From Acidobacteriota bacterium (lineage in GTDB: Bacteria; Acidobacteriota; UBA890; WLXD01): a stretch of DNA of 64,000 bases. Within the stretch, counting starts at the first letter, position 1, and every line of letters starts with the position of its first letter. Under the pieces are notes generated by a model, which saw only the letters and a list, made by a program, of their open reading frames with translations, was not told the origin of the DNA and ran no database searches. The position numbers were made by a program, and so were the translations under genes. Positions 17,017 through 64,000 of this stretch are shown piece after piece. The stretch is taken from NCBI GenBank assembly GCA_963666055.2, contig CAXWPH010000002.1, forward strand, positions 96,001-160,000, read 5' to 3'.

Positions 17017-17028
17017 CGCGGCGTGCCA

Positions 17029-43121: not shown

Positions 43122-43460
43122 ATGGGCAAGAAGGGCTATCTGGGGGAGTTTGAGCACATCGTCTTGTTGGCGCTAGTGCGTCTCGGCGGTGAGGCCGCTG
43201 GCCGAGCCATCTACGAGGAGATCGACCGGCTGGCCAGCACTTCGGTGGCCATCACGGCGGTCTATGTGACCCTTTCGCGGCTCGAAAAGAAGAGCTATGT
43301 CTCCGCGAAGCTCTCCGCGCCCACCCCCGTACGCGGCGGGCGAGCCACCAAGAGCTTTCGGATCGAGGCCGCCGGCCTGGCGGCGCTGCAGCGCTCACGC
43401 CAACAGCTCGAACGGTTCTGGGATGGGGTCGAGATCGGCTCCGAGGCCGAAGGTCGATGA
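43122..43460 (+). CDS. PadR family transcriptional regulator
   Basis: LGEFEHIVLLALVRL, AVYVTLSRLEKK, RGGRATK. Confidence 0.92.
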   Translation: MGKKGYLGEFEHIVLLALVRLGGEAAGRAIYEEIDRLASTSVAITAVYVTLSRLEKKSYVSAKLSAPTPVRGGRATKSFRIEAAGLAALQRSRQQLERFWDGVEIGSEAEGR

Positions 43461-45262
43461 TGCCGCCGGTGTGGGCTGGTTGCCTGAGGGTCTTGTTGCC
43501 GCCGAGACTGCGCTCCGCGGTGATGCGGGATACCTGCACGACGTTCGAGAACCTCGAGGCGCGCCTCGGGCGTCGAGCCGCGCTGCGATGGCTGCGCAGC
43601 CAGGTGCGTGGCGCCGTCGGGCCCTCCCTGCGACATCGGCTCGAATCGGGCGCTGTACCGATGCGACATATCAGGTGCGCCGTGACCAGCCTGGGCGCGG
43701 ATGTTCGCCAGGCGGTGCGCGGTGCAGTGCATCAGCCGGGCTTCAGCGTTGCAGTCGTGCTCACCCTCGGTCTGGGGATTGGCGGCACCGTCGCCATCTT
43801 CAGTGTTGTCGACGCGGTGTTACTGCGCCCGCTGCCGTATCTGGACGCCGAACGGCTTGTTCGGGTCTGGGAGTCAAATGCCATGCTCGGATTCCTCGAA
43901 GATGGCCCATCGCCGGCCAATTTCCTCGACTGGGAAGCGCGCAACGAGGTGTTCGATGGCATTGCGGCGTGGTGGCCGGAGACCGCCATATACAAGTCCG
44001 CCGACCGCGCCGAACAGCTGGAGGTAGCGCATGTTTCTGGCGATTTCTTCCGCCTTCTAGGCACCGAGCCGCTGCTCGGCCGCCTGCTCTCGCCCGACGA
44101 TGCGGTCGGCTCGTGGTACGACAACAGCGGCAATCACTACGGCGCCGAGCCGCTGATCGCGGTGAGCCACCAGTTCTGGAGCTCCCGCCTCGGGGCTGAT
44201 CCACAGGCCGTTGGGCGAGTCATCGAGGTGAATCGTGTGCTGTGGCGGATCGTCGGCGTGATGCCGGCGAGCTTCGCCCTACCCAGGGCGGATATCGACC
44301 TGTGGAACTCTTGGGATCTCGGGGCGCGCGCCCGATCGACCGCCGGCCAGCCTTCGCGTGACTCGCGGTTTCTTGGTGTGGTCGCGCGCCTCCGTGAAGG
44401 ATTGCACATGTCGGCAGCCCAGCTACGGCTGGACGCTCTTGCAGCCGCGCTCGCCACCGAATATCCGGCCACCAACGCCGGTTGGGGTATCCGCGTTACG
44501 CCGCTCAGCGGTCAACTGATCGACCCGGCCCGGCGGCCGCTCGGGGTGCTGTCCGGTGCTGTCGGACTTCTTTTGTTGACGGCTTGCGCCAACGTTGCGG
44601 GATTGCTGTTGGCGCGGTCCACGGCGCGTCGTGGCGTCGGTGTAGTAGGTGACGTTCGCCACCACGACTTGCGCCAGGGGCCACAGCCCGAGATTTTCCT
44701 TCCCTACGCCCAGAACCCGTATCCAGCGCTCAACGTGGTGTTGCGGACCCGTCCGGGTGAGGCGCCCAGTATCGCCGCGATCGAGGCGCTGGTGACGGAG
44801 ATCAATCCCGATCAACCCGTGCACAGCGTGGTGGCGATGCGCGAGCTGGTCGCTGCCACGCTGGCACGGCAACGCTTTGCCGCCACGCTGCTGATCGTCT
44901 TCGCTGGCATCGCGCTGCTGCTGACCACCGTCGGGACCTACGGGGTCGTCGCCTGGTCGGTGAGCCGTCGCGTGCGCGAGCTGGGTATCCGCTCGGCGCT
45001 CGGCGCACGCTCCTCGGAGGTGCGCGTGATGGTCGTCCGCGAGGGCCTGGGTCTTGGCATGATGGGTGTGCTTATGGGTCTCGGTGCCTCGCTGTTGCTC
45101 ATCCGGTCGCTGGACGGATTGCTGTATGAAGTGCGCAGTGACGACGCTGCGACCCGCTTCATTGTGGGTGCGGGACTGCTCGTGGTCACCGCCGCCGCGA
45201 GCTACTTGCCGGCGCGGCGTGCCTCGGCGGTGGAACCGACCGAGGCCTTGCGGTCCGAGTAG
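43457..45262 (+). pseudogene. ADOP-type ABC permease with large in-frame internal deletion
   Basis: 601 aa versus 888/897 aa for the paralogs in this window; LLARSTARRG is joined directly to VGVVGDVR at about 44635. Confidence 0.8.
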
Positions 45263-48658: not shown

Positions 48659-48661
48659 GCC

Positions 48662-49009
48662 TCAGTCGCTCCATTCCGGCGCAACGTCGAGCACGGCGGC
48701 GACCGCGTTGGCGTGGCGCAACCAGCGGCGCGTGTCGCGGCGCAGCCGCTCGTGTCCCGTCTGGGTGAGCTCATAGAGCTTGGCGCGCCGTTGCGTATCC
48801 GATATTCCCCATGAGCTGATGAGCAGGGCATCGCGCTCCAACCGGTGCAGCGCCGGGTACAGGGCCCCCTCTTCTATACGCAGGGCATTGCCAGCAAGCT
48901 CTTCGATGCGACGGCTGACCCCCAGTCCGTGCAGCGGGCCGTGGGTCAACGCCTGCAGGATGAGCAGGCTCAGGGAGCCGTACAGTGTTCCCGCGTCGAC
49001 GGTGCCCAT
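48662..49009 (-). CDS. PadR family transcriptional regulator
   Basis: GSLSLLIL, PLHGLG, EEGALYPALHRLE, WGISDTQRRAKLYELT. Confidence 0.93.
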   Translation of the reverse strand: MGTVDAGTLYGSLSLLILQALTHGPLHGLGVSRRIEELAGNALRIEEGALYPALHRLERDALLISSWGISDTQRRAKLYELTQTGHERLRRDTRRWLRHANAVAAVLDVAPEWSD

Positions 49010-50271: not shown

Positions 50272-50910
50272 TCAGCTCGTCTGTGGCGCCTTCAGAGCTG
50301 CCTTGCGGTTCCGGTAAAGCTGCTGGTCCACGACCGCAGCCATCGCCTCGGCGTCCAGCCCGTACTCGAGGAATTCATCGATCACGCCAACAAACCTGGC
50401 TGGATCCTCGAGCGCGTCCTTGTAGTGCACCTCGATCATCTGGAAGTTGGGGCGATCGCGCACCAGGAACTGGACCTGCACCAGATGTCGCAGGAAGAAC
50501 TGTTTCGTTTGCAGATCGTCGAGCGGATTGTCTTCGGCGCGCCGCTCGAGCATCTTGTTCTGCGATGCCACGACCTCGTCGAGGTCGCGACGCATGAAGA
50601 TCACCTTGTAGAAGTGCTCCGCCGGCAAGTCTTTGAGCAAGTGCGAGATGACCTTCAAGACCTTGCCGCGCGCCTCGCCGACCCACGACTTATCGGTCTC
50701 GCTTTCGAGGTCCTTGACGCGCTCGTGCTCGTAGTAGCCCTTGGGGTTGTCGACATCGGCGGCGCGCTCGTTGTCCGTGAGGATGGGCAGTCCGGCGGCA
50801 TCGAGCATGCGCATCATCATCGAGGTGCCGGAACGCGGTAGCCCGGACACGATGATTACCTCGTCGCCGTACTTGCGACGGCGGAGAGCTCTCTTGAGCG
50901 AAGTCAGCAA
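50272..50910 (-). CDS. Sulfotransferase family protein
   Basis: IIVSGLPRSGTSMMM PAPS-binding loop, DNPKGYYE, VIFMRR; probable TTG start at 50910. Confidence 0.85.
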   Translation of the reverse strand: MLTSLKRALRRRKYGDEVIIVSGLPRSGTSMMMRMLDAAGLPILTDNERAADVDNPKGYYEHERVKDLESETDKSWVGEARGKVLKVISHLLKDLPAEHFYKVIFMRRDLDEVVASQNKMLERRAEDNPLDDLQTKQFFLRHLVQVQFLVRDRPNFQMIEVHYKDALEDPARFVGVIDEFLEYGLDAEAMAAVVDQQLYRNRKAALKAPQTS

Positions 50911-51049
50911 GGGAATCTCTCGGCACGCAGGAGTGGATGATCGGGTCATTGTAGCAAGGCGACCACTCTGGCCCTTGCGGCGCCGGCGCCCATCTTTCGC
51001 GGTGGCGGGGCACGTCAGGGACCGCATCGTTACGTGTACACTGCGGCCT

Positions 51050-52231
51050 ATGAAATGGGCCTCGTTCTTGTCGGAGGAAGCCTGTCTCGACGTCGCCGTG
51101 CAACAGGCGTCCGGCGAGATCGATCGGGCTCTGGGGGGCCGCCAGCCCGACTTGCTATTGCTCTTTGCCTCCGATCATCACGCCGATGACTATCCGGAGG
51201 TGCCTCAGGAGGTCCGGCGATACTTCCCATCCGCACGCTTCTTGGGTTGCTCCGGTGGCGGGGTAGTGGGCGGTGGGCGCGAGATCGAGCATGCTCCCGC
51301 GCTGTCGATGACCGCCGCCGTCCTCCCGGATGTACGCATCGAACCTTTTCACCTCGACTCTGACGAGAGCGACCAATTGATCGAGGAGCCCCAGCGGTGG
51401 CACCGGTGCCTCGACGTTGACATGTCCCGGCCGGCGCACTTCGTGCTGCTGGCGGACCCCTTCAGCTGCGATGCGCGCGGGCTACTGGCCTCGCTCGACT
51501 CGGTGTATCCGGAGAGTCGCAAAGTGGGTGGGCTGGCCAGCGGAGCGAGCCGGCCTGGCGACAACGCACTGTTCATCGATGACGACGTGCGGACCGAGGG
51601 CGTTGCCGGCCTGTTGCTCAACGGTGACATCGCCATGGACACGATCGTTGCGCAGGGCTGCCGACCGATCGGTCCGCTGCTGTTCATCACCAGCGCGGTA
51701 CGCAATCGAATTCTCGAGCTTGACGGAAGACGTCCGACGGAGCTGCTCGGTGAGCTGTACGACGAGCTGTCGGTTGCAGACCGGAAACTCTTTCGACACT
51801 CATTGTTCATCGGCGTGGTGATGACGGAGGGGCGCTCGGCCTATTCGCGTGGCGACTTCCTGGTGCGCAATCTGGTGGGCGTGGAGCCCGAGACTGGCGT
51901 CATCACGGTTGGCGAGCTCGTGCAGCCGGGGCAGGTAGTGCAGTTTCACCTGCGTGATGCCGACACATCGGCAGAGGATCTCGATGCTCTGCTGCGCGAA
52001 TACAAGAACAGCAATGGTGCGACGCCCGACGGAGCGCTGCTGTTCTCTTGCCTGGGTCGCGGCGAGACACTCTACGGGGAGCCTGATCACGACAGCCGCA
52101 TGATCAATAGCCGCCTGGGTGACATGCCCATTGGTGGTTTTTTTTGCAGTGGCGAGATCGGCCCGGTTGACTGCCGCACGTTCGTACATGGTTACACCAG
52201 CTCGATCGCCCTGTTCCGGCAGGAGAGCTGA
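51050..52231 (+). CDS. FIST N/C domain signal transduction protein
   Basis: LGCSGGGVVG, LLADPF, VGGLASG, VAQGCRPIG, QFHLRDA, LFSCLGRG, GFFCSGEIGP, HGYTS. Confidence 0.92.
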   Translation: MKWASFLSEEACLDVAVQQASGEIDRALGGRQPDLLLLFASDHHADDYPEVPQEVRRYFPSARFLGCSGGGVVGGGREIEHAPALSMTAAVLPDVRIEPFHLDSDESDQLIEEPQRWHRCLDVDMSRPAHFVLLADPFSCDARGLLASLDSVYPESRKVGGLASGASRPGDNALFIDDDVRTEGVAGLLLNGDIAMDTIVAQGCRPIGPLLFITSAVRNRILELDGRRPTELLGELYDELSVADRKLFRHSLFIGVVMTEGRSAYSRGDFLVRNLVGVEPETGVITVGELVQPGQVVQFHLRDADTSAEDLDALLREYKNSNGATPDGALLFSCLGRGETLYGEPDHDSRMINSRLGDMPIGGFFCSGEIGPVDCRTFVHGYTSSIALFRQES

Positions 52232-52234
52232 GGC

Positions 52235-53011
52235 GTGGGCCCGTCGCCGACCGGGACGCTGCTGGTGGCGTTGTGCTGCAGCGCCAGCGCCACACAGGCG
52301 ACGCTGTCCATCGAGTACATCGCTCACGCCAGCTTCTTGATCGAGTCGCCGGGTGGCGCCCGCATCCTGGTGGATCCGTTCGCCAGCCGTGTGTGGATCG
52401 GCTACGACTTTCCCGAGGGCCTGCATCCCGACGCGGTCGTGATCACCCATCCGCACTATGATCACGATGCCGGGCGGTTCCGTGGCTCGCCGTTCCCGTG
52501 GCCTGAGGCGCGCATCTTCGACGCCCCCGGCGAGTTCATGGTCGACGACGTTCGCGTGATCGGGCTGCGCGGAAAGCACGCCGATCCGTACGGCGAGGAG
52601 TTCGGCCAGCGCAACACGATCTGGGTGATCGAGACGGCCGGTCTCCGAATCGCACACATCGGCGACAACGGCCCGCTGACACGCGACAACGTTCGCGATC
52701 TCGGCACCATCGACATTCTCATGTTGCCGATCGATGCCCAGTACCACATCCTGGCGCGCGAGGAGGCCGCCGCGCTCGTTACGGCGGTGCAACCACGGCA
52801 CCTGGTACCGATGCACTATCGGCTGCCGGAGCTGGAGCCGGACCCCGACTCGCCCGCTGACCTCGGCACCATCGACCCCTGGCTGCAGGGCCGCGCCGGA
52901 GTTGTGCGGCTCGGTTCCCACCGGTGGCAGGTGGGGCTCGACACGCTGCTCCCGGCCGGCAGCACGGTCGTCTTCGAGCCTTCGCCGCGGGTGGCGCGGC
53001 CAGCGCGCTAG
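52235..53011 (+). CDS. MBL-fold metallo-hydrolase, secreted
   Basis: AHASFLI, ILVDPF, ITHPHYDH, AHIGD, VPMHY. Confidence 0.88.
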   Translation: MGPSPTGTLLVALCCSASATQATLSIEYIAHASFLIESPGGARILVDPFASRVWIGYDFPEGLHPDAVVITHPHYDHDAGRFRGSPFPWPEARIFDAPGEFMVDDVRVIGLRGKHADPYGEEFGQRNTIWVIETAGLRIAHIGDNGPLTRDNVRDLGTIDILMLPIDAQYHILAREEAAALVTAVQPRHLVPMHYRLPELEPDPDSPADLGTIDPWLQGRAGVVRLGSHRWQVGLDTLLPAGSTVVFEPSPRVARPAR

Positions 53012-53094
53012 GGCATCGCCAGCGTCAGGCCGCCTTGCATCTAACCCCAGCTCGCCGAAACCAGGCCCGTCACACTTCCGCCACGGCCTGCTAG
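53008..53094. repeat. 87-bp CTAG-to-CTAG sub-module of MITE family A
   Basis: Its reverse complement aligns along the full length with 49990-50076, which ends at an internal CTAG. Confidence 0.8.
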
Positions 53095-53822
53095 GGGTCG
53101 GAGTCGAACGGTGCTCCCAGTGCTGCCGCGAACGCGCGGATGCGGGCCGCGTTCGCTCCCAGATCACTGCGGCCGACGCGCGACGTCGAGCGTACGTCAA
53201 CTACCGACCCCGACGAGACCGGGCGGACGCGCACGACGAAATCCTCTACGAAGGCAAAAACACTCGATACCGCATAGGCCTCGATGTGGCCGTCGGCACG
53301 GTTACTGAAGGCAATGGTAAGGCCGATCTCCTCCGCTGCCCGAATGGCGGCCGCGTGAGCCGCGCCGGGGTCGAGGTCGAGCTCGATGGGTCGCAAGTCG
53401 GGATAAGCGCGTCGTTGCTCGACGATGACCTCGGCGCCGCCCTGCGGATAGGTCAAGTCGCGGCTCGCGTTATCGTCGTGGTCGAGGGCGACACGGTATG
53501 CGGGCGCATCGTCGGGTGACGTGGTGATGTCGTGAATCGGCGGCGCGTTCATCTGCAGGCGGGCGGCCACCAGCGCAATGATCAGCACTGTGCCGCCGAA
53601 GAGTCCGCGTCGGCCTGCCGCCGGCGACCGCGAATCCTTTCGTGCCCGGCGCCACGCCAGCAGGCCGAGGGCGATGCTGAGCAGGCCCCCCAGGGCCCAA
53701 GTCAGCACGAAGACTCCGAACCCGCTTAGCGGCCTGGCGGCGCCGACATGGATTGCTGCTACTGCGCCCCCCATGATGCCGACGGTAACGATGGGGGAGT
53801 ATGCTGCACTCCGCATCAACAT
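53091..53822 (-). CDS. DUF1499 domain membrane protein
   Basis: PPIHDITT, QRRAYPDLRP, GHIEA, FVEDFVVRV, VDVRSTSRVGRSDLGANAARI. Confidence 0.88.
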   Translation of the reverse strand: MLMRSAAYSPIVTVGIMGGAVAAIHVGAARPLSGFGVFVLTWALGGLLSIALGLLAWRRARKDSRSPAAGRRGLFGGTVLIIALVAARLQMNAPPIHDITTSPDDAPAYRVALDHDDNASRDLTYPQGGAEVIVEQRRAYPDLRPIELDLDPGAAHAAAIRAAEEIGLTIAFSNRADGHIEAYAVSSVFAFVEDFVVRVRPVSSGSVVDVRSTSRVGRSDLGANAARIRAFAAALGAPFDSDP

Positions 53823-54030
53823 TCCTTGCTCCCGAAGTGCCGGCAGGTGCGCCGTAGATGAGTCCCAGAGACCTCATCGGCCTGCTCTCGAGCTCCTCTG
53901 AATCCGACTTCGACGAGACGGTCCGCCGGTACTGCCAGCCGGCTGTTGGGGTAGGCATCGTACAAGACCCTGTACCGGCGCAGGATGCGCACGTCCCTAC
54001 TAGGCTACTCGACTCAGGTAGACTCTCGTG

Positions 54031-54954
54031 ATGGCCGAAGATCGCAAGGAGCTCGTGGCGATCGTCGCGGCGAGGGAGGATGAGCTCGCGCCGCTGCGCG
54101 AGCGTGTGCTCGTTTCCGAGAAGATCAAAGATGGGCCCCGCTACTACCTACGGGGCACGCTGCGCGGAGTGCAGGTCGTGCTCGCGGTTACCGGCGACGG
54201 CAAGCGCAACGCCGATCTCGGAATCCGACGGTTGATCCAGATGTGCGCGCCGACGCGCGTCCTGGCTGTCGGGTTGGGAGGCGCGCTCTCGACAGACCTT
54301 GCGGTTGGCGACCTGGTGGTCTCCAGCGAAGTGATGGAGGGAGAACACACACTCGCCTGTCCGGATCTGCAGTGGCTGGAGGAAGCGTCGATTCATCTGG
54401 ATTATGACCTCGGGCGGCTGGTTACCGTCGACGAGATCTTGGCGACACCATCGAGCAAGTCGGAGTGGTACGGGCGGACATGGCGCGACCAGCCCGCTGC
54501 TGCCGACATGGAGTCCGCCTGCTTCGCCAGAGTGGCCGTAGCCTACAACCTGCCATACCTGATCGCGCGGGCTATCAGCGACGCTGCCGACGAGGTGCTA
54601 CCAGAGTTCCTCGAGGACTGCCGCGCGCAGGACGGCAGCATCGACAAGCGTCAGGTGTTTTGGAAGACGCTCTGGCGACCACGCTCGTGGGGCAACATCG
54701 TACGCTTGCGCTCGCGCATGCGGCGGTGCGCTAGCACGCTGGCCGATTTCGCCGAAGGGATTGGTTGCTGCGTTAGCCTAGCTGCGTTCCCCTCACTGGG
54801 CGCGTTGCCAGCGTCCGCCATTGACATGCCCCGAGGTGTCAAGGACACTCGGAACCCTATGCCCTCAGTGCGGTGCGCTGGTCTTGAACGCGGCGCGCCT
54901 GCCTCTTGTGCGTCGCCGTTGCCGGCGCCGATGCCGCGTTGCGAGTACGCATGA
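54031..54954 (+). CDS. Nucleoside phosphorylase (PNP/MTA-SAH nucleosidase fold), HpnG-like; C-terminus probably frameshift-extended (likely native stop 54779-54781)
   Basis: VTGDGKRNA, VGLGGAL..DLAVGDLV, ADMESA, RAISD; C-terminal helix similar to hopanoid-associated phosphorylases; adjacent to the isoprenoid operon. Confidence 0.75.
   Translation: MAEDRKELVAIVAAREDELAPLRERVLVSEKIKDGPRYYLRGTLRGVQVVLAVTGDGKRNADLGIRRLIQMCAPTRVLAVGLGGALSTDLAVGDLVVSSEVMEGEHTLACPDLQWLEEASIHLDYDLGRLVTVDEILATPSSKSEWYGRTWRDQPAAADMESACFARVAVAYNLPYLIARAISDAADEVLPEFLEDCRAQDGSIDKRQVFWKTLWRPRSWGNIVRLRSRMRRCASTLADFAEGIGCCVSLAAFPSLGALPASAIDMPRGVKDTRNPMPSVRCAGLERGAPASCASPLPAPMPRCEYA
54821..54849 (+). promoter_or_regulatory. 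Candidate promoter/operator of the mevalonate operon
   Basis: TTGACA-N10-TGTCAA inverted repeat (54821-54842); TTGACA is followed 17 nt later by GACACT. Confidence 0.5.
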
Positions 54955-55997
54955 GCAGTACCGACTCACCGGCCGCCAAGCCACCGGCCGAGCGCGACCG
55001 CAAAGCCGAGCACATCCAGCTGGCGCTCGAAGAGCGTATGCAGCACGGCAGTCGCGGCTTCGACGCTTGGCGGCTCGAGCATTGCGCCCTTCCCGAGCTC
55101 GACCTGGCCGAGGTCGACCTCAGCACCGAATTCCTCGGCAAGCAGCTGGCGGCGCCGCTCCTTATCTCCTGCATGACCGGTGGCACCGCTGACGCGGCCC
55201 GAATCAACCGCAACTTGGCCATCGGCGCCGAGCGGGCCGGTGTTGCGGTTGGCGTGGGGTCGCAGCGCAAGGCGCTGGAGGATCCTACGCTCCAAGCCAC
55301 CTTCCAGGTTCGTGAGTACGCTCCCACGGTCCCCCTGCTGGCCAATCTAGGGGCGGTGCAATTGAACTGCGGGTACGGCGTCGCCGAGTGCCGGGCGGCC
55401 GTTCATATGATCGATGCCGACGCTCTCGTGTTGCACCTGAACCCTCTGCAGGAGGCGATTCAGCCCGAGGGCGATGTCAACTTCGCCAACCTGTTGCCGA
55501 AGATCGGCGCGATTGTTGGTCAACTCGAGGTACCGGTCATCGTCAAGGAGATCGGCATGGGCATATCGCTGTCGGTGGCCGAGCGCCTCGCTGAAGCCGG
55601 CGTCCGTATCATCGACACTGCGGGGCATGGGGGCACCAACTGGGCGCGCATCGAAGCGCAGCGTGCCGACGACCTCGAGCTCGGTGCGACGTTCGCCGAG
55701 TGGGGAATTCCAACGCCCGACAGCATCCGCGCCGTCGCCAGCGTGCCGGGAGTCACCGTCATTGGCAGCGGCGGGGTCCGTACTGGAATCGACGTGGCCA
55801 AGGCGGTAGCGCTCGGCGCTGACATGGTCGGCCTGGCGTATCCGTTCCTCAAAGCGGCGCTGGAGTCAGCCGCTGCCGTCGTGGCGCGGATCGACCGTAC
55901 CTTGACGGAGCTCAGGGTGTCGATGTTCTGCGCCGGCATCCGTACAGTGGCCGATCTGCGTGCCGCAAGTCTGATCGAGCGAGCGACTCGGCGATGA
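54951..55997 (+). CDS. fni: Type 2 isopentenyl-diphosphate delta-isomerase (FMN-dependent)
   Basis: RKAEHI, ISCMTGG, VGSQR, ANLGAVQL, HLNPLQEAIQPEGD, VKEIG, GGTNW, SGGVRTG. Confidence 0.96.
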   Translation: MSSTDSPAAKPPAERDRKAEHIQLALEERMQHGSRGFDAWRLEHCALPELDLAEVDLSTEFLGKQLAAPLLISCMTGGTADAARINRNLAIGAERAGVAVGVGSQRKALEDPTLQATFQVREYAPTVPLLANLGAVQLNCGYGVAECRAAVHMIDADALVLHLNPLQEAIQPEGDVNFANLLPKIGAIVGQLEVPVIVKEIGMGISLSVAERLAEAGVRIIDTAGHGGTNWARIEAQRADDLELGATFAEWGIPTPDSIRAVASVPGVTVIGSGGVRTGIDVAKAVALGADMVGLAYPFLKAALESAAAVVARIDRTLTELRVSMFCAGIRTVADLRAASLIERATRR

Positions 55998-57247
55998 CTG
56001 ACGCTGCCGAGCCGGTCGACCAGGGCACCCTCGTAGACGAGATCGTAGCCGGCACCCGGCGCTTCCATCACCTGCCGTCCGAGCTCGGCGCCGCTGAGGC
56101 TGCGGCCATTCGACGACAGGCGCTCGAGCGCCTGGCCGGAGTAAATCTGACACATACCGGCAAGTACTCATTCGACGCCGCGCGCGCCGCCGACAGCCAT
56201 TGCGAGAATCTGATCGGTGTGACGCAGGTGCCGGTCGGTGTAGCAGGGCCACTACTCGTGCGGGGTGATTATATCGACGGTGAGGTCTACGTCCCTCTGG
56301 CTACGACGGAGGGAGCGCTCGTCGCCAGCATTAACCGGGGCTGTGCGGCCATCCGCGCGGCCGGCGGGGCCGCCGTGTACGTGGAGGACGTCGGCATGAC
56401 CCGGGCGCCGGTGTTTCGCTCCAGCGGGCTGGCGCAGACACGTGAGTTCCTCCGCTGGGTTACCGACAACGAGGATGAGATCCGCTCCGTGGCAGAGGGC
56501 ACGAGCCGCTTCCTGCAGCTGGTGGATATCCGCCCCTATGCTTTCGGTACCACGATCTTCCTGCGCTTCAGGTTTCGCTCGGGCGATGCCATGGGAATGA
56601 ACATGGCAACCATCGCCTGCGATCAGCTAGTGCGCGAGTTGATCGAGCCGGCGACCGGGGTACCCTGCGTTGCTCTTTCCGGAAACTACTGTACCGACAA
56701 GAAACCCGCGGCGATCAACTTCCAGGAAGGCCGCGGCAAGCGCATACACGCGCAGGTCAGACTCGACGCCGATGTGCTGGCGCGCCTGAAGACGAGCGCG
56801 GCCGAGCTGCTCGAGGTGCAGTATCGCAAGAACCTGCTGGGCTCGATTGCTGCCGGTTCGATAGGTTTCAATGCCCACGTCGCCAACGTTCTCGCGGCGG
56901 TGTTTCTCGCTACTGGACAGGATCCGGCGCATGTAGTGGAAGGGTCGATGGGAATCACCTCTATCGAGCCTGGCGACGAGGGTGGCGTGGTGGCATCGAT
57001 GTACCTGCCTGCTGTTCCGCTGGCGGCGATCGGCGGTGGTACTGCGCTCGACACACAACGCGAGGCGCTTGCTGTGCTCGGCGTTGCTGCAGAGCCGGAC
57101 CGGCCTGGTGTCGCGGTGCTGCGATTAGCCGAGATCCTCGGCGCCGCCGTCCTCGCAGGCGAGCTGTCGTTGCTGGCCGCTCTTACCTCTCAGGACCTCG
57201 CCGGCGCCCACAAGCGGCTGGGGCGGCGCGCCCGGCCCGGCAGCTAG
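55994..57247 (+). CDS. hmgA: Class I (NADPH) HMG-CoA reductase
   Basis: CENLIG, PLATTEGALVASINRG, GMTRAP, GDAMGMNM, SGNYCTDKKPAAIN, GQDPAH, LAGELSL. Confidence 0.96.
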   Translation: MTDAAEPVDQGTLVDEIVAGTRRFHHLPSELGAAEAAAIRRQALERLAGVNLTHTGKYSFDAARAADSHCENLIGVTQVPVGVAGPLLVRGDYIDGEVYVPLATTEGALVASINRGCAAIRAAGGAAVYVEDVGMTRAPVFRSSGLAQTREFLRWVTDNEDEIRSVAEGTSRFLQLVDIRPYAFGTTIFLRFRFRSGDAMGMNMATIACDQLVRELIEPATGVPCVALSGNYCTDKKPAAINFQEGRGKRIHAQVRLDADVLARLKTSAAELLEVQYRKNLLGSIAAGSIGFNAHVANVLAAVFLATGQDPAHVVEGSMGITSIEPGDEGGVVASMYLPAVPLAAIGGGTALDTQREALAVLGVAAEPDRPGVAVLRLAEILGAAVLAGELSLLAALTSQDLAGAHKRLGRRARPGS

Positions 57248-57258
57248 ACGGTCGCCTG

Positions 57259-58377
57259 ATGGAAGCGGCGCGGTTGCCCGAAGGGCGCTTGCTGACGCGC
57301 GTCTCGACGCCTGGAAAGCTCATCCTCATGGGCGAACATGCGGTCGTCTACGGTCGGCCGGCGCTGGTGGCGGCCACTAGCCTGCGCCTACGGGTCTACC
57401 TATACCGCGCACAGCGGGCCGGCGTGGAAGTGGAGTTGCCGGAGCTCCAGTTCCAAAACCACGTTTCTTGGCAAGAGATCTGGCGCTATGCGAGCCGAAT
57501 GCGGCAGCGGTGGGACCGCTACGACACGAGCCTGACGCCGGAGGTGTTCGCTCGCCTTCAGGACGACCGCCCCGACCGGTTGGTGCTGCTGGCACTGGGC
57601 GAGGCAATCACGGCGCTCGGTGAGGATCCCGGCGCGAAGGACCATCCGCTGAGCGCGCTGCGGCTTCGGGTGGACTCGGCGGTCCCAATGGAGGTCGGCT
57701 TTGGGAGCTCCGCCGCCACCGCCGTGGCAGTGGTAACAGCGGTTTGTGCGCTCTCTGGTAAGGCGGAGAGGTGGTCACTGATTGGGCCGATCGTGGGCGA
57801 GGTGGAGCGCCGGCAGCATGGCGCGCCGTCTGGGGTGGATGTCGCGGCCGTGTTTCACGGCGGTGTGTTGCGCGCTCGCCGCGGCGGCGAAGAGCTATTG
57901 ATCGAGCCGCTGGCGGCGCGCCCTGACACCCTGCAGCGGCTGCGGGTGTTCGACACGGGTCGCTCGGCCGAGCCGACCGGCGCGGTGGTCGCGGCAGTAC
58001 GGGCGCAACACGACCGCCACCCAGCCAGCTTCGAGGCGTCGCTGGACGCTGCCGAATCCGCAACCCGGGCCTTCCAGGACGCGGTTACCGCATCAGCTGA
58101 CCAGATCGACCTGGTGCCACCGATCCGCGATGCTCAGCGCTACCTGGAGTCTCTCGGTGTGGTGCCCGAGCCAGTATGCGACGCCGTCCGCGCTGTCGAA
58201 GCTCTGGGCGGCGCCGCCAAGATCTCCGGTTCGGGTTCGCTCGCGGGGCCAGGGGCCGGCTCTTTGTTGGTATTGTTGCCTGCTGGGATCGAGAATCTCC
58301 CAGAGCCGCTGGCGAGGCTTCCGGAGCACGAAGTGTCGCTGGGCGCGGAGGGTGTGCGCGTAGAGGTGGCGTCATGA
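57259..58377 (+). CDS. mvk: Mevalonate kinase (GHMP family)
   Basis: PGKLILMGEHAVVYG, P.EVGFGSSAA, HGAPSGVD, AKISGSG. Confidence 0.88.
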   Translation: MEAARLPEGRLLTRVSTPGKLILMGEHAVVYGRPALVAATSLRLRVYLYRAQRAGVEVELPELQFQNHVSWQEIWRYASRMRQRWDRYDTSLTPEVFARLQDDRPDRLVLLALGEAITALGEDPGAKDHPLSALRLRVDSAVPMEVGFGSSAATAVAVVTAVCALSGKAERWSLIGPIVGEVERRQHGAPSGVDVAAVFHGGVLRARRGGEELLIEPLAARPDTLQRLRVFDTGRSAEPTGAVVAAVRAQHDRHPASFEASLDAAESATRAFQDAVTASADQIDLVPPIRDAQRYLESLGVVPEPVCDAVRAVEALGGAAKISGSGSLAGPGAGSLLVLLPAGIENLPEPLARLPEHEVSLGAEGVRVEVAS

Positions 58378-59399
58378 GCCGCAGCGCCACCGTCGAAGCA
58401 CCCTCCAATATCGCGTTTGTGAAGTACTGGGGTGCCGCTGACCTGGAGAAGGCCATCCCGCTCAACGCTTCGATCTCGATGTCGTTGCGGGCGTGCGTCA
58501 CACGGACGAGCGTCGAGACGCTCGCGGCCGGCGCCGACGACCAGATCTGGATGCGCGTCGACGGCCAATGGCGTCGCGCCGAAGGAGCGTTCCGGCATCG
58601 CGCAGCGGCACATCTGGAAGGTCTGCGGCGTTGGGCCAAAGTCGACGTGGGCTTTCGGGTCGCTACCGAGAACAGCTTTCCTGCCGCCGCCGGTATCGCC
58701 TCGTCGGCTTCCGGCTTCGCCGCCCTCACCCTGGCGGTGCTGGCGGCGCTCGAGCGGGAGCCGGCAGGTGATGAGCTATCGAATTTGGCGCGGTTGTCTG
58801 GCTCAGGCTCCGCGTCGCGGTCGGTTTTCGGCGGCTACGTGCAGTGGCCGCACGGCGACGAGGCAGACCCGTGGCGCGCCGCACCGCTGGCGACGGCCTC
58901 GCATTGGGACCTGCGCGACGTAATCGCGATTGTGCAAACCGGTCCCAAGGCGGTGTCGTCTCTCGAGGGGCACGCCCGGGCCCCCACCAGCCCCCATTTC
59001 GCACGCCGGCAGGAGCTCATCCCGTCGCGTCTTCAACGGGTGCGCGACGCCATCGAGGCGCGCGACCTGGACCAACTCGGTCCGGTCGTCGAGGAAGACG
59101 CGATTGAGCTCCACCTGGTAGCGATGTCCTCGCAGCCTCCGATCTTCTACTGGCAGCCGGCGACGCTTCGCGTGCTGCACCACGTTCGCACCCTGCGGAG
59201 CGGTGGAACGTCGGCGTGGGCAACAATGGACGCCGGAGCTAACGTGCATGTGATTTGCTCCGCCGACGACGAGGCAGACGTCGCCGCCGGGTTGGAAGCG
59301 CTCGATGGTGTCCAGAGTGTGATCCGCGACGGCGTGGGCTCGGGACCACGGACCCTGCCGGTATCGCTGCTCGATGCTCTGGATCGAGCGCAGCCATGA
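58374..59399 (+). CDS. mvaD: MvaD-family decarboxylase, probably mevalonate-5-phosphate decarboxylase
   Basis: NIAFVKYWG, NASIS, NSFPAAAGIASSASGFAAL, GSGSASRS, SSLEGH, TMDAGANVH; followed by ipk. Confidence 0.9.
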   Translation: MSRSATVEAPSNIAFVKYWGAADLEKAIPLNASISMSLRACVTRTSVETLAAGADDQIWMRVDGQWRRAEGAFRHRAAAHLEGLRRWAKVDVGFRVATENSFPAAAGIASSASGFAALTLAVLAALEREPAGDELSNLARLSGSGSASRSVFGGYVQWPHGDEADPWRAAPLATASHWDLRDVIAIVQTGPKAVSSLEGHARAPTSPHFARRQELIPSRLQRVRDAIEARDLDQLGPVVEEDAIELHLVAMSSQPPIFYWQPATLRVLHHVRTLRSGGTSAWATMDAGANVHVICSADDEADVAAGLEALDGVQSVIRDGVGSGPRTLPVSLLDALDRAQP

Positions 59400-60196
59400 A
59401 CGACCTGGTGGTAGTCAAGCTCGGTGGCAGCTTGATCACGAACAAGCGCCGCCATCGAACGGTGAGGCGGGCTGAGCTTTCGCGACTCGCCGGCGAGATC
59501 GCGGCGCTCACCCGCCGCTTTGGATTCCCGATGCTGTTAGGGCACGGTAGTGGGTCCTTTGGGCACGTGGCGGCAGCGGAGTCAGGCGTTCACGACGGGA
59601 TGGCCGGGCGTCGTGCGCGGGTCGGTGTGTCGCAGACGCAGGCTGCAGCTGCAGAGCTGCACGCGATCGTGATGAGCGCTCTGCGCGATGCCGGTGTGGC
59701 TGCCTACTCGGTGGCGCCGTCGAGCGCTATTGTCGCCAGAGGCCCCGGTCTTCGGCCGAGCGTGCACCTGGAGCCGGTGCTCCGAGCGCTCGACAGTGGG
59801 CTGCTACCCGTTACGTATGGCGACATCGTCATGGACCGGCAACGTGGCTGCTCGATTTGCTCGACCGAAATGGCGCTGCTGGCGTTCGTTCGCTCGCTAC
59901 GCTCGTCAAATCGGCGTGTCTCCGACGCCATCTGGCTCGGAGACACCGACGGCATTCTGGATGCGGCTGGGGTGAGCGTTACTCGCGTCCGCTTGCGAGA
60001 CGCCAGGCGCGTCCGCCGCCTGGTGAGTGGCGCGGCCGCGACCGACGTGACCGGCGGCATGCGCCATCGGTTCGAGGCGGCGTTGGCGCTGGCCCGCATT
60101 GGCGTACGGTCCTATCTGCTCGATGGCCGTCGACCGGGCATCCTGCGACGTGCGCTGCGGGGCACCGCGGTGCCGGGGACAATCGTCGAGCGTTGA
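59396..60196 (+). CDS. ipk: Isopentenyl phosphate kinase (amino acid kinase family)
   Basis: VVKLGGSLITNK, GHGSGSFGH, PVTYGD, ICSTE, DVTGGM, typical of IPK. Confidence 0.9.
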   Translation: MNDLVVVKLGGSLITNKRRHRTVRRAELSRLAGEIAALTRRFGFPMLLGHGSGSFGHVAAAESGVHDGMAGRRARVGVSQTQAAAAELHAIVMSALRDAGVAAYSVAPSSAIVARGPGLRPSVHLEPVLRALDSGLLPVTYGDIVMDRQRGCSICSTEMALLAFVRSLRSSNRRVSDAIWLGDTDGILDAAGVSVTRVRLRDARRVRRLVSGAAATDVTGGMRHRFEAALALARIGVRSYLLDGRRPGILRRALRGTAVPGTIVER

Positions 60197-60276
60197 CCGG
60201 CGGCGGCTTCGTTGCCTGGGCCGCGCCCCCGCCAGGGTGGATAATGGACCTCGGCCAGCCAAAGCCAGGCGCACGC

Positions 60277-61197
60277 ATGGACCGCATCGAAGACCTTCTC
60301 GAGAAGACCAGCCGCACGTTCGCGCTATCGATCCCGTTGCTGCCGGAGCCGACCCGCCGCGAGCTTGGCATCGCCTACCTGCTGTTCCGCATTGCGGACA
60401 CCTTCGAGGACGCGTCGCAATGGGACCGACAGCAGCGCATCGATGCCCTCGAAGAGTTCATGAGCCTGGTTCGAGATCCGGACGAGCAGCGCGCCGCCGA
60501 GCTGGGACGTAGGTGGGCCGCCTCCGTACCGATTGACCATCCCGGCTATCTCGAGCTACTCGGCGAATCCGCAACCGTGATCCGGGAATACCAGCGTCTG
60601 CGACCTGACGCACGGGAGATCATCCGTGAGCACACGTTGCGGACCGTTGCTGGCATGTCCGGATTCGTCAAGCGCTCTGTCGATGGCGTGCTCAAGCTCG
60701 AGTCTCTCGCTGACTTGCGCGAGTACTGTTACGTGGTTGCCGGTATCGTCGGTGAGCTCAGCACTGATCTGTTCCTCCTCGAGCGCCCCCAGCTGGCGTC
60801 GTCGATCGAGTTCTTGCGACAGCGCGCTGCGCGGTTTGGCGAGGCGCTGCAACTGGTCAACATCCTCAAGGATGCCGCCACCGACCGGCGTGAGGGTCGG
60901 CGTTACCTGCCTGCAGCGTTGAAGCGCAAGGAGATCTTCCGGTTGGCCCGCGAAGACCTCCGAGTAGCAGCCCATTACACCAACGCACTGCAGGCGGCGG
61001 GTGCGCCGCGCGGCATCGTCGCGTTCTGCGCGCTACCTACACGGCTGGCCGTCGTCGCCCTCGACATCGTCGAGCGGTGCGGGCCCGGCGCGAAGATCTC
61101 ACGCCAAGACGTTGCCGACATCGTCGAGGCCCTGAACCTAGATCTCGACGTCGGTGCTCCCGCGGTGGCGATTCCAGCAACCGCGAAACCGACGTGA
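60277..61197 (+). CDS. Squalene/phytoene synthase family, single-subunit squalene synthase-like (alternative ATG 60244)
   Basis: KTSRTFAL, YLLFRIADTFED, YCYVVAGIVGE, LQLVNILKD, EGRRYLP. Confidence 0.88.
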   Translation: MDRIEDLLEKTSRTFALSIPLLPEPTRRELGIAYLLFRIADTFEDASQWDRQQRIDALEEFMSLVRDPDEQRAAELGRRWAASVPIDHPGYLELLGESATVIREYQRLRPDAREIIREHTLRTVAGMSGFVKRSVDGVLKLESLADLREYCYVVAGIVGELSTDLFLLERPQLASSIEFLRQRAARFGEALQLVNILKDAATDRREGRRYLPAALKRKEIFRLAREDLRVAAHYTNALQAAGAPRGIVAFCALPTRLAVVALDIVERCGPGAKISRQDVADIVEALNLDLDVGAPAVAIPATAKPT

Positions 61198-61226
61198 CCA
61201 AGCCGGTGTCCGGCGCTGCTCCGAGA

Positions 61227-62048
61227 TCACTTTTCGGCACCTTCGGGGTTAGCTCTCTTGGCGCGGTCGATCCAGGCGTCGGCGTCCGGATGGCCCCGTT
61301 GCTGCCATTCCCGGGCTCGATCCATAGTCCGCCGATAGGCGTCGCGGCTTGCCGCGGCGTCGTCGACTTCGGCGTAGGCCTCGGCTAGCGCGAGGAGGTT
61401 GGGGGGGTACTCGGGGTAGAGCTCGACTGCGCGTCGCGCCTGCTCCAGGCCCTCGTCCGCGTCTCCGGGACCGGTGGGCCAGCCGGGCGCTTGCACCAGC
61501 ATTTGCGACAACACGCGCCGAGGTCCCGCGTAGTCGAGACGTTCGTGCCCGGCGATGGCAGCACGGAGCTCGCGTTCCATCGTGCGTAGCCCGTCCGAAG
61601 CCGTGGCGCGACGCTGGTTGGCTTGTACGCCGACGGCGATCGCCAGCCAGTAGTGGCAGTCCGGGTTCGTTGGCTCGCGCCTTCGGCACCACTGGGCCGT
61701 TTGCACTGCCTCGGTGGCCTTGTCCTTACGAGCCTGCGGATCGTCCAAATGCTCCCCGAGCCAGGTCTGTGCCCTCACGGCACCGATGATTGCCAGTGCG
61801 CTCGACGGACGGGCGATGGCGGATCGGATCCAGAGGGCCTCGGCCTGACGCACCGCGTCGACCTTGGGGCGTAGCCCGAACGCTTCCTCGGCGGCGGTAG
61901 CCAGACGGGCAGCCTCCTCCTCGTCGATGCGTTCCGGATCGACGCGGCCGAGCGCCGAGCTCGTGTCGAGCGGCTGGAGCGCAGCGACACACGCGGACGA
62001 AGCGAGAGCTGCGGCTGCCAGTAAGGCGGCGGATCGACGAAGGCTCAT
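61227..62048 (-). CDS. TPR lipoprotein, TatT/BstC-like
   Basis: SSAC lipobox; CHYWLAIAVG, DYAGPRRVL...QAPGWPTGPGD, P.YPPN..ALAEA. Confidence 0.75.
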   Translation of the reverse strand: MSLRRSAALLAAAALASSACVAALQPLDTSSALGRVDPERIDEEEAARLATAAEEAFGLRPKVDAVRQAEALWIRSAIARPSSALAIIGAVRAQTWLGEHLDDPQARKDKATEAVQTAQWCRRREPTNPDCHYWLAIAVGVQANQRRATASDGLRTMERELRAAIAGHERLDYAGPRRVLSQMLVQAPGWPTGPGDADEGLEQARRAVELYPEYPPNLLALAEAYAEVDDAAASRDAYRRTMDRAREWQQRGHPDADAWIDRAKRANPEGAEK

Positions 62049-62938
62049 CGAGCCGCCGAGTACGCCGCCCGGGCAAGGTCCAGCGCCTCGGCGTCCAGGG
62101 CTTCGAAGCGCTCTAGTCGCATGGTTTCGAGCACGTCAGCGAAGCTCGCCGACTGGTGGATGCCGAGCAGCCCGTGGACTAACTGCCGACGCACCGGCTC
62201 GTCGACGCGGTCGCCCACGACGACGACGAGCCAGGCCAAGAGAGGCGGTGACGTCGCCACCACCTCGAGCGACTCCGCGCCCGGAAACGAAGCCAACGCG
62301 GCAGTCTGGTTGCCATCGAGAAGTACGGCAACTTCCTCGCCGGCGGCCACACGCCGTATGCCGGCAAGGACCCGCCGTGTGAACTTGACGGAAAGCGAAT
62401 CCGGCAGCTCCCCCCAATGCGCCAGTGCCGGCCCGCGTACGAAACCGGGTGCGTATGCCGGAATGCCTAGTAGCTCCCAGCCGGAGAGCGAGGCGGGCCC
62501 GGTGACCGCTCCGGCGAAAGCCACCAGGCTCCAGCGCTCGGTGGCGCTCCCGGACGCCTGTACCGCCTGCACCACCGCCGTGAGCACCAGCTCCTGCTCG
62601 TACTTCAGATATAGCGGTAGTGGCACCAACGCCAGCGACGTGGCGTGGTCGCGTAGACGGCCTACCCCGGCTTCCTCGCTCGGATGGTATTCGGCCGTCA
62701 AGGTCCCGGTCGGCCACCCTGAGGCGTCCGAGACCATCGCTGCGAAGTCGTTCATCGTCGGCTGCGCCTGCTCGGTGTTGCTCGGATACCCTGGCGCGCA
62801 GGCCACCAGCCGCAGAGTCTCCAGGTCGGCGGATACGCCAGCCTGACTCCCACCGCCTGCCGTCGTCGCAGCTGCCGTCGTCGCACAAAGCGCCACCGCG
62901 AAGAGAAGCTTGTTCATCGTCGGCGCAGAATCGTTCAT
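62045..62938 (-). CDS. Periplasmic substrate-binding protein, PhnD/BstB-like
   Basis: Signal peptide; ACAPGYPSNTEQAQPTMNDF, GWP.G.L.AEY, VAVLLD..Q, SPPL; 4-nt overlap with the downstream lipoprotein gene. Confidence 0.7.
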   Translation of the reverse strand: MNDSAPTMNKLLFAVALCATTAAATTAGGGSQAGVSADLETLRLVACAPGYPSNTEQAQPTMNDFAAMVSDASGWPTGTLTAEYHPSEEAGVGRLRDHATSLALVPLPLYLKYEQELVLTAVVQAVQASGSATERWSLVAFAGAVTGPASLSGWELLGIPAYAPGFVRGPALAHWGELPDSLSVKFTRRVLAGIRRVAAGEEVAVLLDGNQTAALASFPGAESLEVVATSPPLLAWLVVVVGDRVDEPVRRQLVHGLLGIHQSASFADVLETMRLERFEALDAEALDLARAAYSAAR

Positions 62939-62984
62939 CGTGGGGAGGGTTGTCAGTATTCTTCGAAAGAATACCTGCCACCTG

Positions 62985-64000
62985 TCAACGGCGCGCGATC
63001 CCGCTCACGATCAACAGGTTCGGCAGCACGATCAAGGCGGCGACAGTGCAAGCGCCCACCCCTAGCAGCAGTACGACCCCAAGGCTCGCCATGCCGCGGT
63101 GTGTAGCAAACACGAGGCTTCCGAATCCCACCATGGTCGTAAGCGAAGCGATGAGGATCGCCCGCCCGGTATGCGAAACGACCGTCATGATGCCGGCGCC
63201 GCCCTCTAGTCGCAGTCGGTGGACGATGTGTACTCCGGCATCGATGCCGACTCCCAGGACGATCGGCACCGCCACCAGGTTGGCGAAATTAAACGACAGA
63301 CCGAGCGCCCACATGAGTCCGAGCATCCATACCGTCCCGAAGAAAACCGGGACGAGGGCGAGAGCCGTGTGCCGCGCGTTGCGCAGATCCAGCAGCAGCA
63401 CCAGGAACACGACCAACGCGGCGCTCGCGAATGCTAGCCCGAACCCCGAGGTGATCAAGGCAGAGTGGGTTTCGAAGAGCACCGGAAAGCCGATGGCGTC
63501 GTTGGCGACGCGGCGCGACGCGAAGTTGAACTGTCGCAGGAAGCGGGTGTCATAAATATCGCCTGCCGGGAACAGATAGCCAACGTATCGGTCGTCCTCG
63601 GTGATGAATCGATCGACGATGTCTGAAGGCAAGGATGCTCGGGTCGGGAGCGGCACGCCGGCGGCGTCGCGCAGCTGCTGTAGGACGCTGAACGCCTCGA
63701 GGCGCAGGGCCTCCTGTGCCTCGGCCCACTCGGCGATCCGCTCGCGGCTCGCCGCGATCGTTAGCTCGATGGCTCTTGCGGTCACCTGACGGGCCTCTTC
63801 CAAGGCTCCGGACACCCCTCCCAGCCCGGCAACGAAAGCGTCGTCGGCGGCGATGGCCAAGGCAGACTCTAGTCGCGACAGCGAGTCACTCAGGCGGCGG
63901 CCGTCGAACGCCGCCTCGCCCACCTCGATGACTTCCAGAGTCCGGCGGAGGCGCGCCGCGGCGGCCTCCGACGCCAACGGTTGATCGGGCAGGAATGCGA
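62985..64000 (-). CDS. RND/MMPL family lipid transporter (HpnN/BstA-like), 5' end beyond window
   Basis: C-terminal TM repeat: LALVPV, NFANLVAVPIVLGVGIDAGVHIVHR, TGRAILIASLTTMVGFGSL, GMASLG; the frame is open to the window edge. Confidence 0.9.
   Translation of the reverse strand, partial: AFLPDQPLASEAAAARLRRTLEVIEVGEAAFDGRRLSDSLSRLESALAIAADDAFVAGLGGVSGALEEARQVTARAIELTIAASRERIAEWAEAQEALRLEAFSVLQQLRDAAGVPLPTRASLPSDIVDRFITEDDRYVGYLFPAGDIYDTRFLRQFNFASRRVANDAIGFPVLFETHSALITSGFGLAFASAALVVFLVLLLDLRNARHTALALVPVFFGTVWMLGLMWALGLSFNFANLVAVPIVLGVGIDAGVHIVHRLRLEGGAGIMTVVSHTGRAILIASLTTMVGFGSLVFATHRGMASLGVVLLLGVGACTVAALIVLPNLLIVSGIARR

Follow-up and report, generated by a model that had tools for sequence, protein, structure and literature searches.

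A mevalonate and probable squalene operon facing a BstABC-like transporter in acidobacteria without a detected triterpene cyclase

Genes and conservation of the locus

The window considered here is a 64,000-nucleotide stretch of an acidobacterial genome (G000:C2:96001-160000, where G000 is the genome under study, other G numbers are compared genomes, and L numbers are fetched loci), the assembly of which comprises 5.73 Mb in 15 contigs and is 95.7% complete. Its last genes form a plus-strand run for mevalonate and squalene synthesis that converges on a minus-strand trio resembling the sterol transporter BstABC. A preliminary description, made from the window alone, had read these genes as one locus for the synthesis and export of a cyclic triterpenoid in a probable member of the Acidobacteriota. 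The names on the closest homologues bear out the host, all of the open reading frames lie where that description placed them, and the family profiles agree with its gene identities. Overall, the locus is real and conserved, and it joins variants of three known systems.

The plus-strand run begins with an hpnG-like gene encoding a 5'-methylthioadenosine/S-adenosylhomocysteine (MTA/SAH) nucleosidase-like protein (54031..54954), which scores 94.5 bits against TIGR03468 and 93.3 bits against PRK05584, both below cut-off. It is followed by fni, encoding a type 2 isopentenyl diphosphate (IPP) isomerase (54951..55997; TIGR02151, 396.5 bits against a cut-off of 281.3), and by hmgA, encoding a class I 3-hydroxy-3-methylglutaryl coenzyme A (HMG-CoA) reductase (55994..57247; TIGR00533, 445.3 bits against 441.8). 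The next gene is assigned as the mevalonate kinase gene mvk (57259..58377) from its operon position and a TIGR00549 score of 136.4 bits, below the cut-off of 163. The product of mvaD (58374..59399) is a decarboxylase, predicted to be of the mevalonate-5-phosphate decarboxylase (MPD) type, that exceeds the TIGR01240 cut-off and has 6N0X as its best PDB match (E 8e-63), and ipk (59396..60196) encodes an isopentenyl phosphate kinase (IPK) with an HGSGSFGH motif (NF040647, 149.1 bits against 120). The last gene, sqs (60277..61197, with an alternative ATG at 60244), encodes a putative single-enzyme squalene synthase whose best matches are TIGR01559 (93.2 bits, below the cut-off of 286.75) and eukaryotic squalene synthase structures. 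The run had been described as translationally coupled. The ATGA overlaps at 55994, 58374, and 59396 were confirmed, and a fourth at 54951 joins hpnG to fni, but coupling does not extend to every junction, as hmgA and mvk are 11 bp apart and ipk and sqs are 47 or 80 bp apart, depending on the sqs ATG.

Recomputation gave the same 29-bp gap as before between the sqs stop and the stop of the convergent operon. This operon ends with a gene for a BstC-like tetratricopeptide repeat (TPR) lipoprotein with its lipidation cysteine at Cys20 (61227..62048, minus strand; NF045602, 82.9 bits against 350), the profile of which has BstC (7T1S) as its best PDB match (E 1.5e-35). Its start overlaps, by ATGA, a gene for a BstB-like (PhnD-like) periplasmic binding protein (62045..62938, minus strand; 62.9 bits against 350). 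After a spacing of 46 bp comes a gene for a BstA/HpnN-like transporter of the resistance-nodulation-division (RND; MMPL) type, of which the 3' part is in the window (62985..64000, minus strand). Reading the flank, as the preliminary description had advised, completed this gene at 903 aa: its stop is at 62985 and its start is at G000:C2:161696, about 1.7 kb past the window end. Altogether, curated NCBIfam cut-offs are passed by Fni, HMG-CoA reductase, MvaD (TIGR01240), and IPK, and the models for mevalonate kinase, squalene synthase, HpnG, BstA/B/C, and HpnN are best matches that stay below their cut-offs.

Contigs of two independent runs span window positions 50713-56842 with 0 and 1 differences, and two marine metagenomes contain pieces of the stretch, mostly 90-99% alike; among the runs listed as containing the stretch, none is of RNA. 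The GC fraction of the locus genes (0.64-0.69 against 0.65 for the contig) carries no visible signal of horizontal transfer, and a promoter and terminator scan of the locus returned sites no commoner than in shuffled sequence. The ratios of nonsynonymous to synonymous substitution rates (dN/dS) against four congeners are 0.06-0.32; all ten of the remaining genes are under purifying selection, and none of them shows decay in the genus. Of the nine family relatives with an identified sqs, eight retain the convergent sqs/bstC junction, the two genes being 2-251 bp apart, and the arrangement is therefore not due to chance; in the ninth (G006), about 8 kb has been inserted. The adjacency of the two operons, which the preliminary description expected in related genomes, is thus conserved within the family but was seen at none of 20 loci from other acidobacterial families. 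Just past the window and divergent from the RND gene lies a gene of the archaeal-type alanine dehydrogenase/ornithine cyclodeaminase (OCD) family (L001:5811-6770), syntenic in all seven family loci that extend to its position.

The mevalonate route and the probable squalene synthase

The proposal of a modified (MPD/IPK) mevalonate route in an acidobacterium is upheld by an IPK above its cut-off, by decarboxylase residues that fit, and by searches that found no phosphomevalonate kinase (PMK) or methylerythritol phosphate (MEP) pathway genes. G000 encodes HMG-CoA synthase, HMG-CoA reductase, mevalonate kinase, the decarboxylase, IPK, and IPP isomerase. HMG-CoA synthase (a best match below its cut-off) and farnesyl diphosphate (FPP) synthase, both noted earlier as missing from the window, are encoded on other contigs, and the short-chain prenyl synthase scores above the cut-off for FPP synthase. 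The five GHMP matches in the genome are mevalonate kinase, MvaD, ThrB, GalK, and an HddA-like kinase, leaving no PMK among them. Profile and tblastn searches of the 95.7% complete genome did not find dxr, dxs, or ispH; the Dxs and IspH queries, like one of the squalene-hopene cyclase (SHC) tblastn queries used below, came from the unpublished genome G047. The mevalonate run would thus apparently be the only IPP source of the cell, which suffices to explain why it has been kept.

The 6N0Z variant differs from 6N0X by N to K after KYWG and by H to M in GHALA; MvaD from the window has Ala and His at these positions, and the lysine is missing and the histidine present in all 22 acidobacterial MvaD copies compared. 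In the accessible part of PMC11052028, the phosphomevalonate decarboxylase type is recognized by the lack of the lysine of diphosphomevalonate decarboxylases and the presence of the histidine. The chemistry is very probably as follows: acetyl-CoA would be converted to mevalonate by HMG-CoA synthase and HmgA, phosphorylated by mevalonate kinase, decarboxylated to isopentenyl phosphate, phosphorylated by IPK, and isomerized by Fni.

IPK exceeds its cut-off in 31 of 351 genomes of the phylum, distributed over 10 families. Among the 14 IPK loci examined outside the family of G000, the five-gene run recurs in G029, G109, G132, G143, G169, G233, G260, G276, G301, G348, and G349, part of it occurs in G179 and G356, and G064 has another layout. 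The dxr gene is absent from all 10 family relatives, present in all four tested genomes of a sister family, and still present in seven IPK-bearing genomes of this operon type or genus (G029, G132, G169, G188, G233, G276, and G348). Where the consulted parts of PMC6107057, PMC9254496, and PMC11052028 name bacteria with the MPD route, these are only Chloroflexi. The present data would extend the MPD/IPK route beyond Chloroflexota, to several families of Acidobacteriota among which the MEP pathway can be seen at different stages of loss.

The sqs gene is the single SQS_PSY gene of G000. Its product has two Asp-rich motifs and a YCYxVAGxVG motif and aligns to squalene synthases over 215 residues. 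Orthologues 51-63% identical to it are the only SQS_PSY genes in G005, G008, G109, G178, G223, and G276, each of which has an SHC, and squalene is therefore the likely product. This agrees with the earlier choice of squalene over phytoene. Given FPP synthase, there is a high probability that the sqs product would join two FPP to form squalene. Squalene enzymes are not always linked to a cyclase, as stated in the portion of PMC7306690 that was available. A carotenoid route was also considered and set aside; 7 of the 10 amine-oxidase matches in G000 were tested, and none exceeded the cut-off for CrtI, CrtN, or HpnE.

Loss of the cyclase block from a hopanoid operon

No squalene-hopene or oxidosqualene cyclase was found in G000 with PF13243, TIGR01787, PF00432, tblastn, or a custom SHC profile. 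PF13243 gave two partial matches of about 75 positions each, tblastn with the SHCs of three relatives gave no match at 1e-3, and the custom profile matched only a secreted CxxCH family. TIGR01787 is exceeded in 2 of 11 family genomes and in none of the five of the genus; PF00432 is insensitive (0/14 controls, with the G008 SHC missed) and carries little weight. HpnH was likewise not found in G000 (best tblastn match 23.5% over 200 aa; no phmmer match at 1e-4), nor was a squalene epoxidase of PF08491, the alternative epoxidase AltSQE not having been searched for. G000 thus had no detected DxDD-type cyclase, HpnH, oxidosqualene cyclase gene (osc), or PF08491 epoxidase by which a hopanoid cluster or sterol biosynthesis would be recognized. 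The claim that a cyclic triterpenoid is made and exported is not supported for G000: as far as its 95.7% complete assembly and its four congeners go, the genome has no triterpene cyclase, an absence that the preliminary description had itself named as refuting the claim. Cyclization very probably does not occur in G000: squalene would leave the synthase and no ring would be formed.

The association with hopanoids suggested in the preliminary description holds as history. In G005 and G008, shc-hpnH-hpnA lie directly before hpnG, and the window HpnG is 65-66% identical to the product of the gene that follows hpnA there. The SHC of G008 is intact, with a DCDDTA motif, and that of G005 has one internal TAG beside an apparently broken hpnA. 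The site of the three genes is marked in the window by a DUF1499 gene (53091..53822, minus strand), which starts 208 bp before hpnG; DUF1499 occupies it throughout the genus and in G006, and transposases are found there in G007. Judged from gene order, the locus is a hopanoid operon after the loss of shc-hpnH-hpnA. In G109 and G276, the mevalonate run is nested between shc-hpnH-(hpnA)-hpnG and sqs. The order in G178 and G223 is shc-hpnH-hpnA-hpnG-(fni)-sqs-dxs with no mevalonate run, and the gene-order claim rests on these two genomes. These layouts suggest that a hopanoid operon likely acquired the mevalonate genes and was trimmed afterwards. A FastTree phylogeny of seven locus proteins from 21 genomes, (G005,((G007,G008),(genus,(G006,G009)))) with supports of 0.97-1.0, implies at least two losses of the cyclase block within the family, a provisional count. 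A Sulfotransfer_3 gene stands beside shc in G005 and still beside hpnG in G007 (L053:3797-5185 and L057:1-955); it was not found in G000.

The hpnG gene has been retained though shc and hpnH are gone, and its dN/dS is 0.06-0.18. G000 carries a futalosine menaquinone cluster (G000:C15:948577-959424) with mqnE, mqnC, and two PF02621 genes, and no protein in the genome exceeds the cut-off for futalosine hydrolase (TIGR03664). Left without an adenosylhopane substrate, the HpnG orthologue might, speculatively, fill the role of a general adenosyl nucleosidase, the futalosine pathway being one possible setting. Two other proteins of G000 resembling MTA/SAH nucleosidases, with apparent signal peptides, score at least as well as it does in the futalosine hydrolase test. 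Genes such as hpnG, hpnN-like genes, and short open reading frames annotated as squalene-hopene cyclase are no proof of hopanoid production and call for caution in their use as biomarkers.

The transporter and its cargo

The preliminary description had likened the minus-strand trio to BstABC, and this likeness is borne out by adjacent RND, PhnD-fold, and TatT-like genes whose best PDB matches are 7T1M and 7T1S. Foldseek aligns the BstB-like model to its top match, 7T1M, with E 5e-19 and TM scores of 0.72/0.82 at 21% identity, and 7T1M is the sole PDB match of the corresponding profile. The lipoprotein cysteine is kept in at least 90% of 19 aligned sequences, and, in structure and profile matches, BstB and BstC lie nearer to the two soluble proteins than PhnD or TatT do. 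The RND protein is about equally close to HpnN (TIGR03480, 365.6 bits, short of the cut-off of 751.85) and BstA (358.6 bits, against 1400). By these profile and structure matches, the trio is truly, if distantly, homologous to BstABC. In the part of PMC10942540 consulted, Glu118, Tyr120, and Asn192 of Methylococcus capsulatus BstB and Glu86 of BstC are tied to the sterol hydroxyl. The corresponding triad here, Glu134/Trp136/Asp208, recurs unchanged in 74 of 108 loci; at the position of BstC Glu86, which is Glu99 in the lipoprotein of the window, 93 of 108 have an acidic residue. The set includes some duplicates. A further MMPL protein with a sterol-sensing-domain match lies near an AMP-binding enzyme elsewhere in the genome (L322:5540-7948, on G000:C15).

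BstB-like genes occur in 37 of 351 genomes of the phylum. Among the 28 such genomes outside the family, SQS_PSY is present in 26, compared with 23 of 50 trio-free controls (Fisher p 2.5e-5 by genome), and a full SHC is present in 5 (one more has a divergent fusion), compared with 6 of 30 controls (p 1.0); genome G047 is counted in both control sets. Outside the family, the trio accompanies squalene-synthase-family genes and not cyclases. Across all genomes there were 145 BstC-like loci, and the neighbors of the best 80 were counted. BstB-like genes were found in 76 of these 80 and an MMPL gene in 61; within 10 kb, shc was found in four myxococcal loci and hpnA/hpnH in one. Three loci had a steroid-reductase-family gene, 18 had an fn3 protein, and 16 had a TonB-dependent receptor. 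A cyclase is present in 7 of 24 genomes tested among those reached through BstC-like loci, and on a BstB plus BstC tree of 57 loci its presence changes 12 times, compared with a mean of 16 after shuffling.

The best explanation, with a chance that falls slightly short of even, is that squalene is the end product of the MPD/IPK route and that the BstABC-like trio relays squalene or an acyclic derivative outward. The RND protein would lift the lipid from the inner membrane, the binding protein would cross the periplasm with it, and the lipoprotein would receive it at the outer membrane, with direction and cargo no surer than this reading as a whole. It is rather doubtful, on a broader scale, that BstABC homologues serve as a triterpenoid relay independent of any cyclase; in lineages that repeatedly dropped SHC, selection would then maintain squalene synthase and the relay because the outer membrane receives acyclic squalene, or an alcohol derived from it, as a substitute for hopanoids.

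Several observations weigh against squalene as cargo or against parts of the proposed route. The two operons are convergent and so have no common promoter, and none of the 20 Bst-like loci from other acidobacterial families has mevalonate genes, sqs, or shc within about 10 kb. The association with squalene synthase is weak when counted by family (10/12 compared with 16/33, p 0.046; kin are not independent), and 2 of the 28 Bst-like genomes have no SQS_PSY gene. All three transporter genes score far under the NF045600/601/602 cut-offs. The polar pocket residues associated with the sterol hydroxyl are conserved (BstB Glu118/Tyr120/Asn192 corresponding to Glu134/Trp136/Asp208 and BstC Glu86 to Glu99), which fits an alcohol better than a pure hydrocarbon. 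At other loci, the trio stands beside a steroid-reductase-family gene or beside genes for a secreted fn3 protein and a TonB-dependent receptor, an arrangement suggestive of uptake. Finally, MvaD does not have the Arg27, Ala139, and Thr192 given for Chloroflexi in Table 4 of Dellas et al. (PMC3857490, available in part): where that set is Leu, Arg/Thr, Ala, and Thr, MvaD reads Ala, Ala, Ser, and Ser, the third also being Ser in 6N0X.

The most serious alternative to squalene export, an unlikely one in our estimate, is that the trio handles sterols or hopanols scavenged from the surroundings or a host and that squalene has other uses or stays in the inner membrane. The retained hydroxyl-binding residues fit scavenged sterols equally well, 17 of the 24 genomes to which the BstC-like loci led are without a cyclase, and the runs that contain the locus in full carry two coded organism labels. 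Four cyclase-free genomes also have the trio beside a steroid 5-alpha-reductase-family gene (L137 from G064, L256, L281, and L298), three of them with a gene resembling 3-beta-hydroxysteroid dehydrogenase and G064 with FadL; these loci are candidate modules for sterol uptake and stanol formation. However, the reductase, FadL, and fn3 proteins are without match in G000, and some enzymes of the Steroid_dh family act on nonsteroid substrates. HpnN and BstA are, moreover, described as exporters in the parts of PMC10942540 and PMC11713862 consulted. Steroid catabolism was considered for G000 and rejected, no KshA having been found there. At other loci, BstB/BstC-like genes lead into a gene for a secreted protein of about 750 aa that matches no family apart from fn3 and into one for a TonB-dependent receptor (L118, L119, L120, L122, L125, L128-L130, L132, L134, L135, and 16-18 of L230-L309).

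Less probable still is inherited synteny, with the trio moving some unrelated lipid, for instance a fatty acid or lipid alcohol. It would account for the lack of terpene genes near the 20 loci of other acidobacterial families and for the 70 of the best 80 of 145 BstC-like loci, many on short contigs, with no terpene or steroid query genes in the available sequence. In the family, unrelated flanking genes (OCD family, FIST, and DUF1499) are equally syntenic, and TatT relatives bind long-chain fatty acids according to the available part of PMC11713862. The nearest solved structures, however, are BstB and BstC, not PhnD or Es_TatT, and the nearby shc of four myxococcal loci, the hpnA/hpnH of one, and the SQS_PSY enrichment also argue against it.

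It is very unlikely that a cyclic triterpenoid is made and exported after all, by a cyclase missing from the assembly or of an unrecognized single-domain type. The genome is incomplete by a few percent, and it contains three copies of a secreted helical-barrel family of 350-430 aa (C6:241883-243142, equivalent to L004:484-1746; C15:368156-368839; and C15:625548-626507), often named squalene-hopene cyclase automatically, the model of which weakly resembles single-domain cyclases such as 8PAK (TM 0.48/0.57). These copies are the weak matches that the cyclase searches returned. The family was aligned, folded, and searched as a candidate hidden cyclase and was rejected: the fold match is generic, with a glycoside hydrolase fitting equally well (TM < 0.5 on the query), and the consensus has an invariant CxxCH, a possible heme c site, and no DxDD. 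One of the three copies has no N-terminal half, and the family was not found in G006, G007, and G009, which have the same cyclase-less locus. SHC is also missing from all five genus genomes, two of them assembled in 2 and 9 contigs; independent contigs run across the deletion site, which is closed; and neither hpnH nor an epoxidase was found. A divergent two-domain cyclase-like sequence occurs in other genomes (L214:8809-10734 from G169, and G276:C22), with 29% identity to SHC, no DxDD match, and frames of 1130-1155 aa.

The weakest alternative, that the synthase makes phytoene, dehydrosqualene, or a C30 carotenoid precursor, could draw on its 93 bits against a squalene synthase cut-off of 287 and on CrtI-like oxidoreductases elsewhere in G000 (124-132 bits against 238), but it is highly improbable, given that CrtB, HpnC, and HpnD score lower and align over only 70-90 residues (140-229), that the orthologue is the sole candidate squalene source in six SHC genomes, and that FPP synthase is encoded.

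Squalene as the cargo would, if true, explain the uncyclized squalene of many bacteria and its path to the outer membrane. The cyclase-less state is what makes the transporter interesting, and close relatives that share the trio with and without a cyclase form a natural test set for Bst-type cargo.

Elsewhere in the window, the gene at 17023-19293 encodes a pyridine nucleotide-disulfide oxidoreductase domain fused to AIRS domains, the layout of selenide water dikinase fusions. PadR-type regulators occur with duplicated MacB/FtsX permeases at 43457-45262, 45992-49009, and 35876-38569; the first copy is short (601 aa), with an internal part apparently missing.

Our searches, outside which lay subscription papers, figures, and most supplements, found no publication on this locus; its parts can be compared with three known systems. 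The first is the hopanoid cluster with HpnG and HpnN, as in the SD22 acidobacterial genome (Sinninghe Damste et al. 2017, PMC5462960), for which the consulted parts report mevalonate genes, shc, hpnH, and a squalene-synthase-like gene; SD6 acidobacteria have squalene capacity without shc. Relatives of G000 share this gene set, with a single-enzyme squalene synthase in place of HpnCDE, whereas shc, hpnH, and hpnA are gone in G000. In the searched text and supplement of PMC5462960, the decarboxylase appears under the diphosphate type and IPK is not named, and no binding-protein or lipoprotein partners are described for the HpnN of hopanoid clusters.

The second is the mevalonate pathway of the Haloarchaea/Chloroflexota type (Dellas et al. 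2013, PMC3857490; 6N0X), which the locus resembles in mevalonate kinase, an MPD-type decarboxylase, and IPK, with no PMK or MEP genes found. Here it occurs in Acidobacteriota as one compact operon with a class I HMG-CoA reductase, inside a hopanoid cluster. Compared with the Chloroflexi MPD, three Table 4 positions differ, and several acidobacterial carriers retain dxr.

The third is BstA-BstB-BstC of M. capsulatus (Zhai et al., eLife 2024, PMC10942540), the one sterol carrier system known from bacteria. The published accounts of sterol transport by BstA/B/C, as far as they were accessible, describe no host without a cyclase; G000, in contrast, has no detected osc, epoxidase, or cyclase, its BstB is about 21% identical, and its neighbors are mevalonate and squalene genes. 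Both consist of three neighboring genes, which encode an RND protein of the MMPL type, a binding protein with the PhnD fold, and a TPR lipoprotein; the best structure and profile matches of the trio are to this system, and the polar residues of the BstB and BstC pockets are retained.

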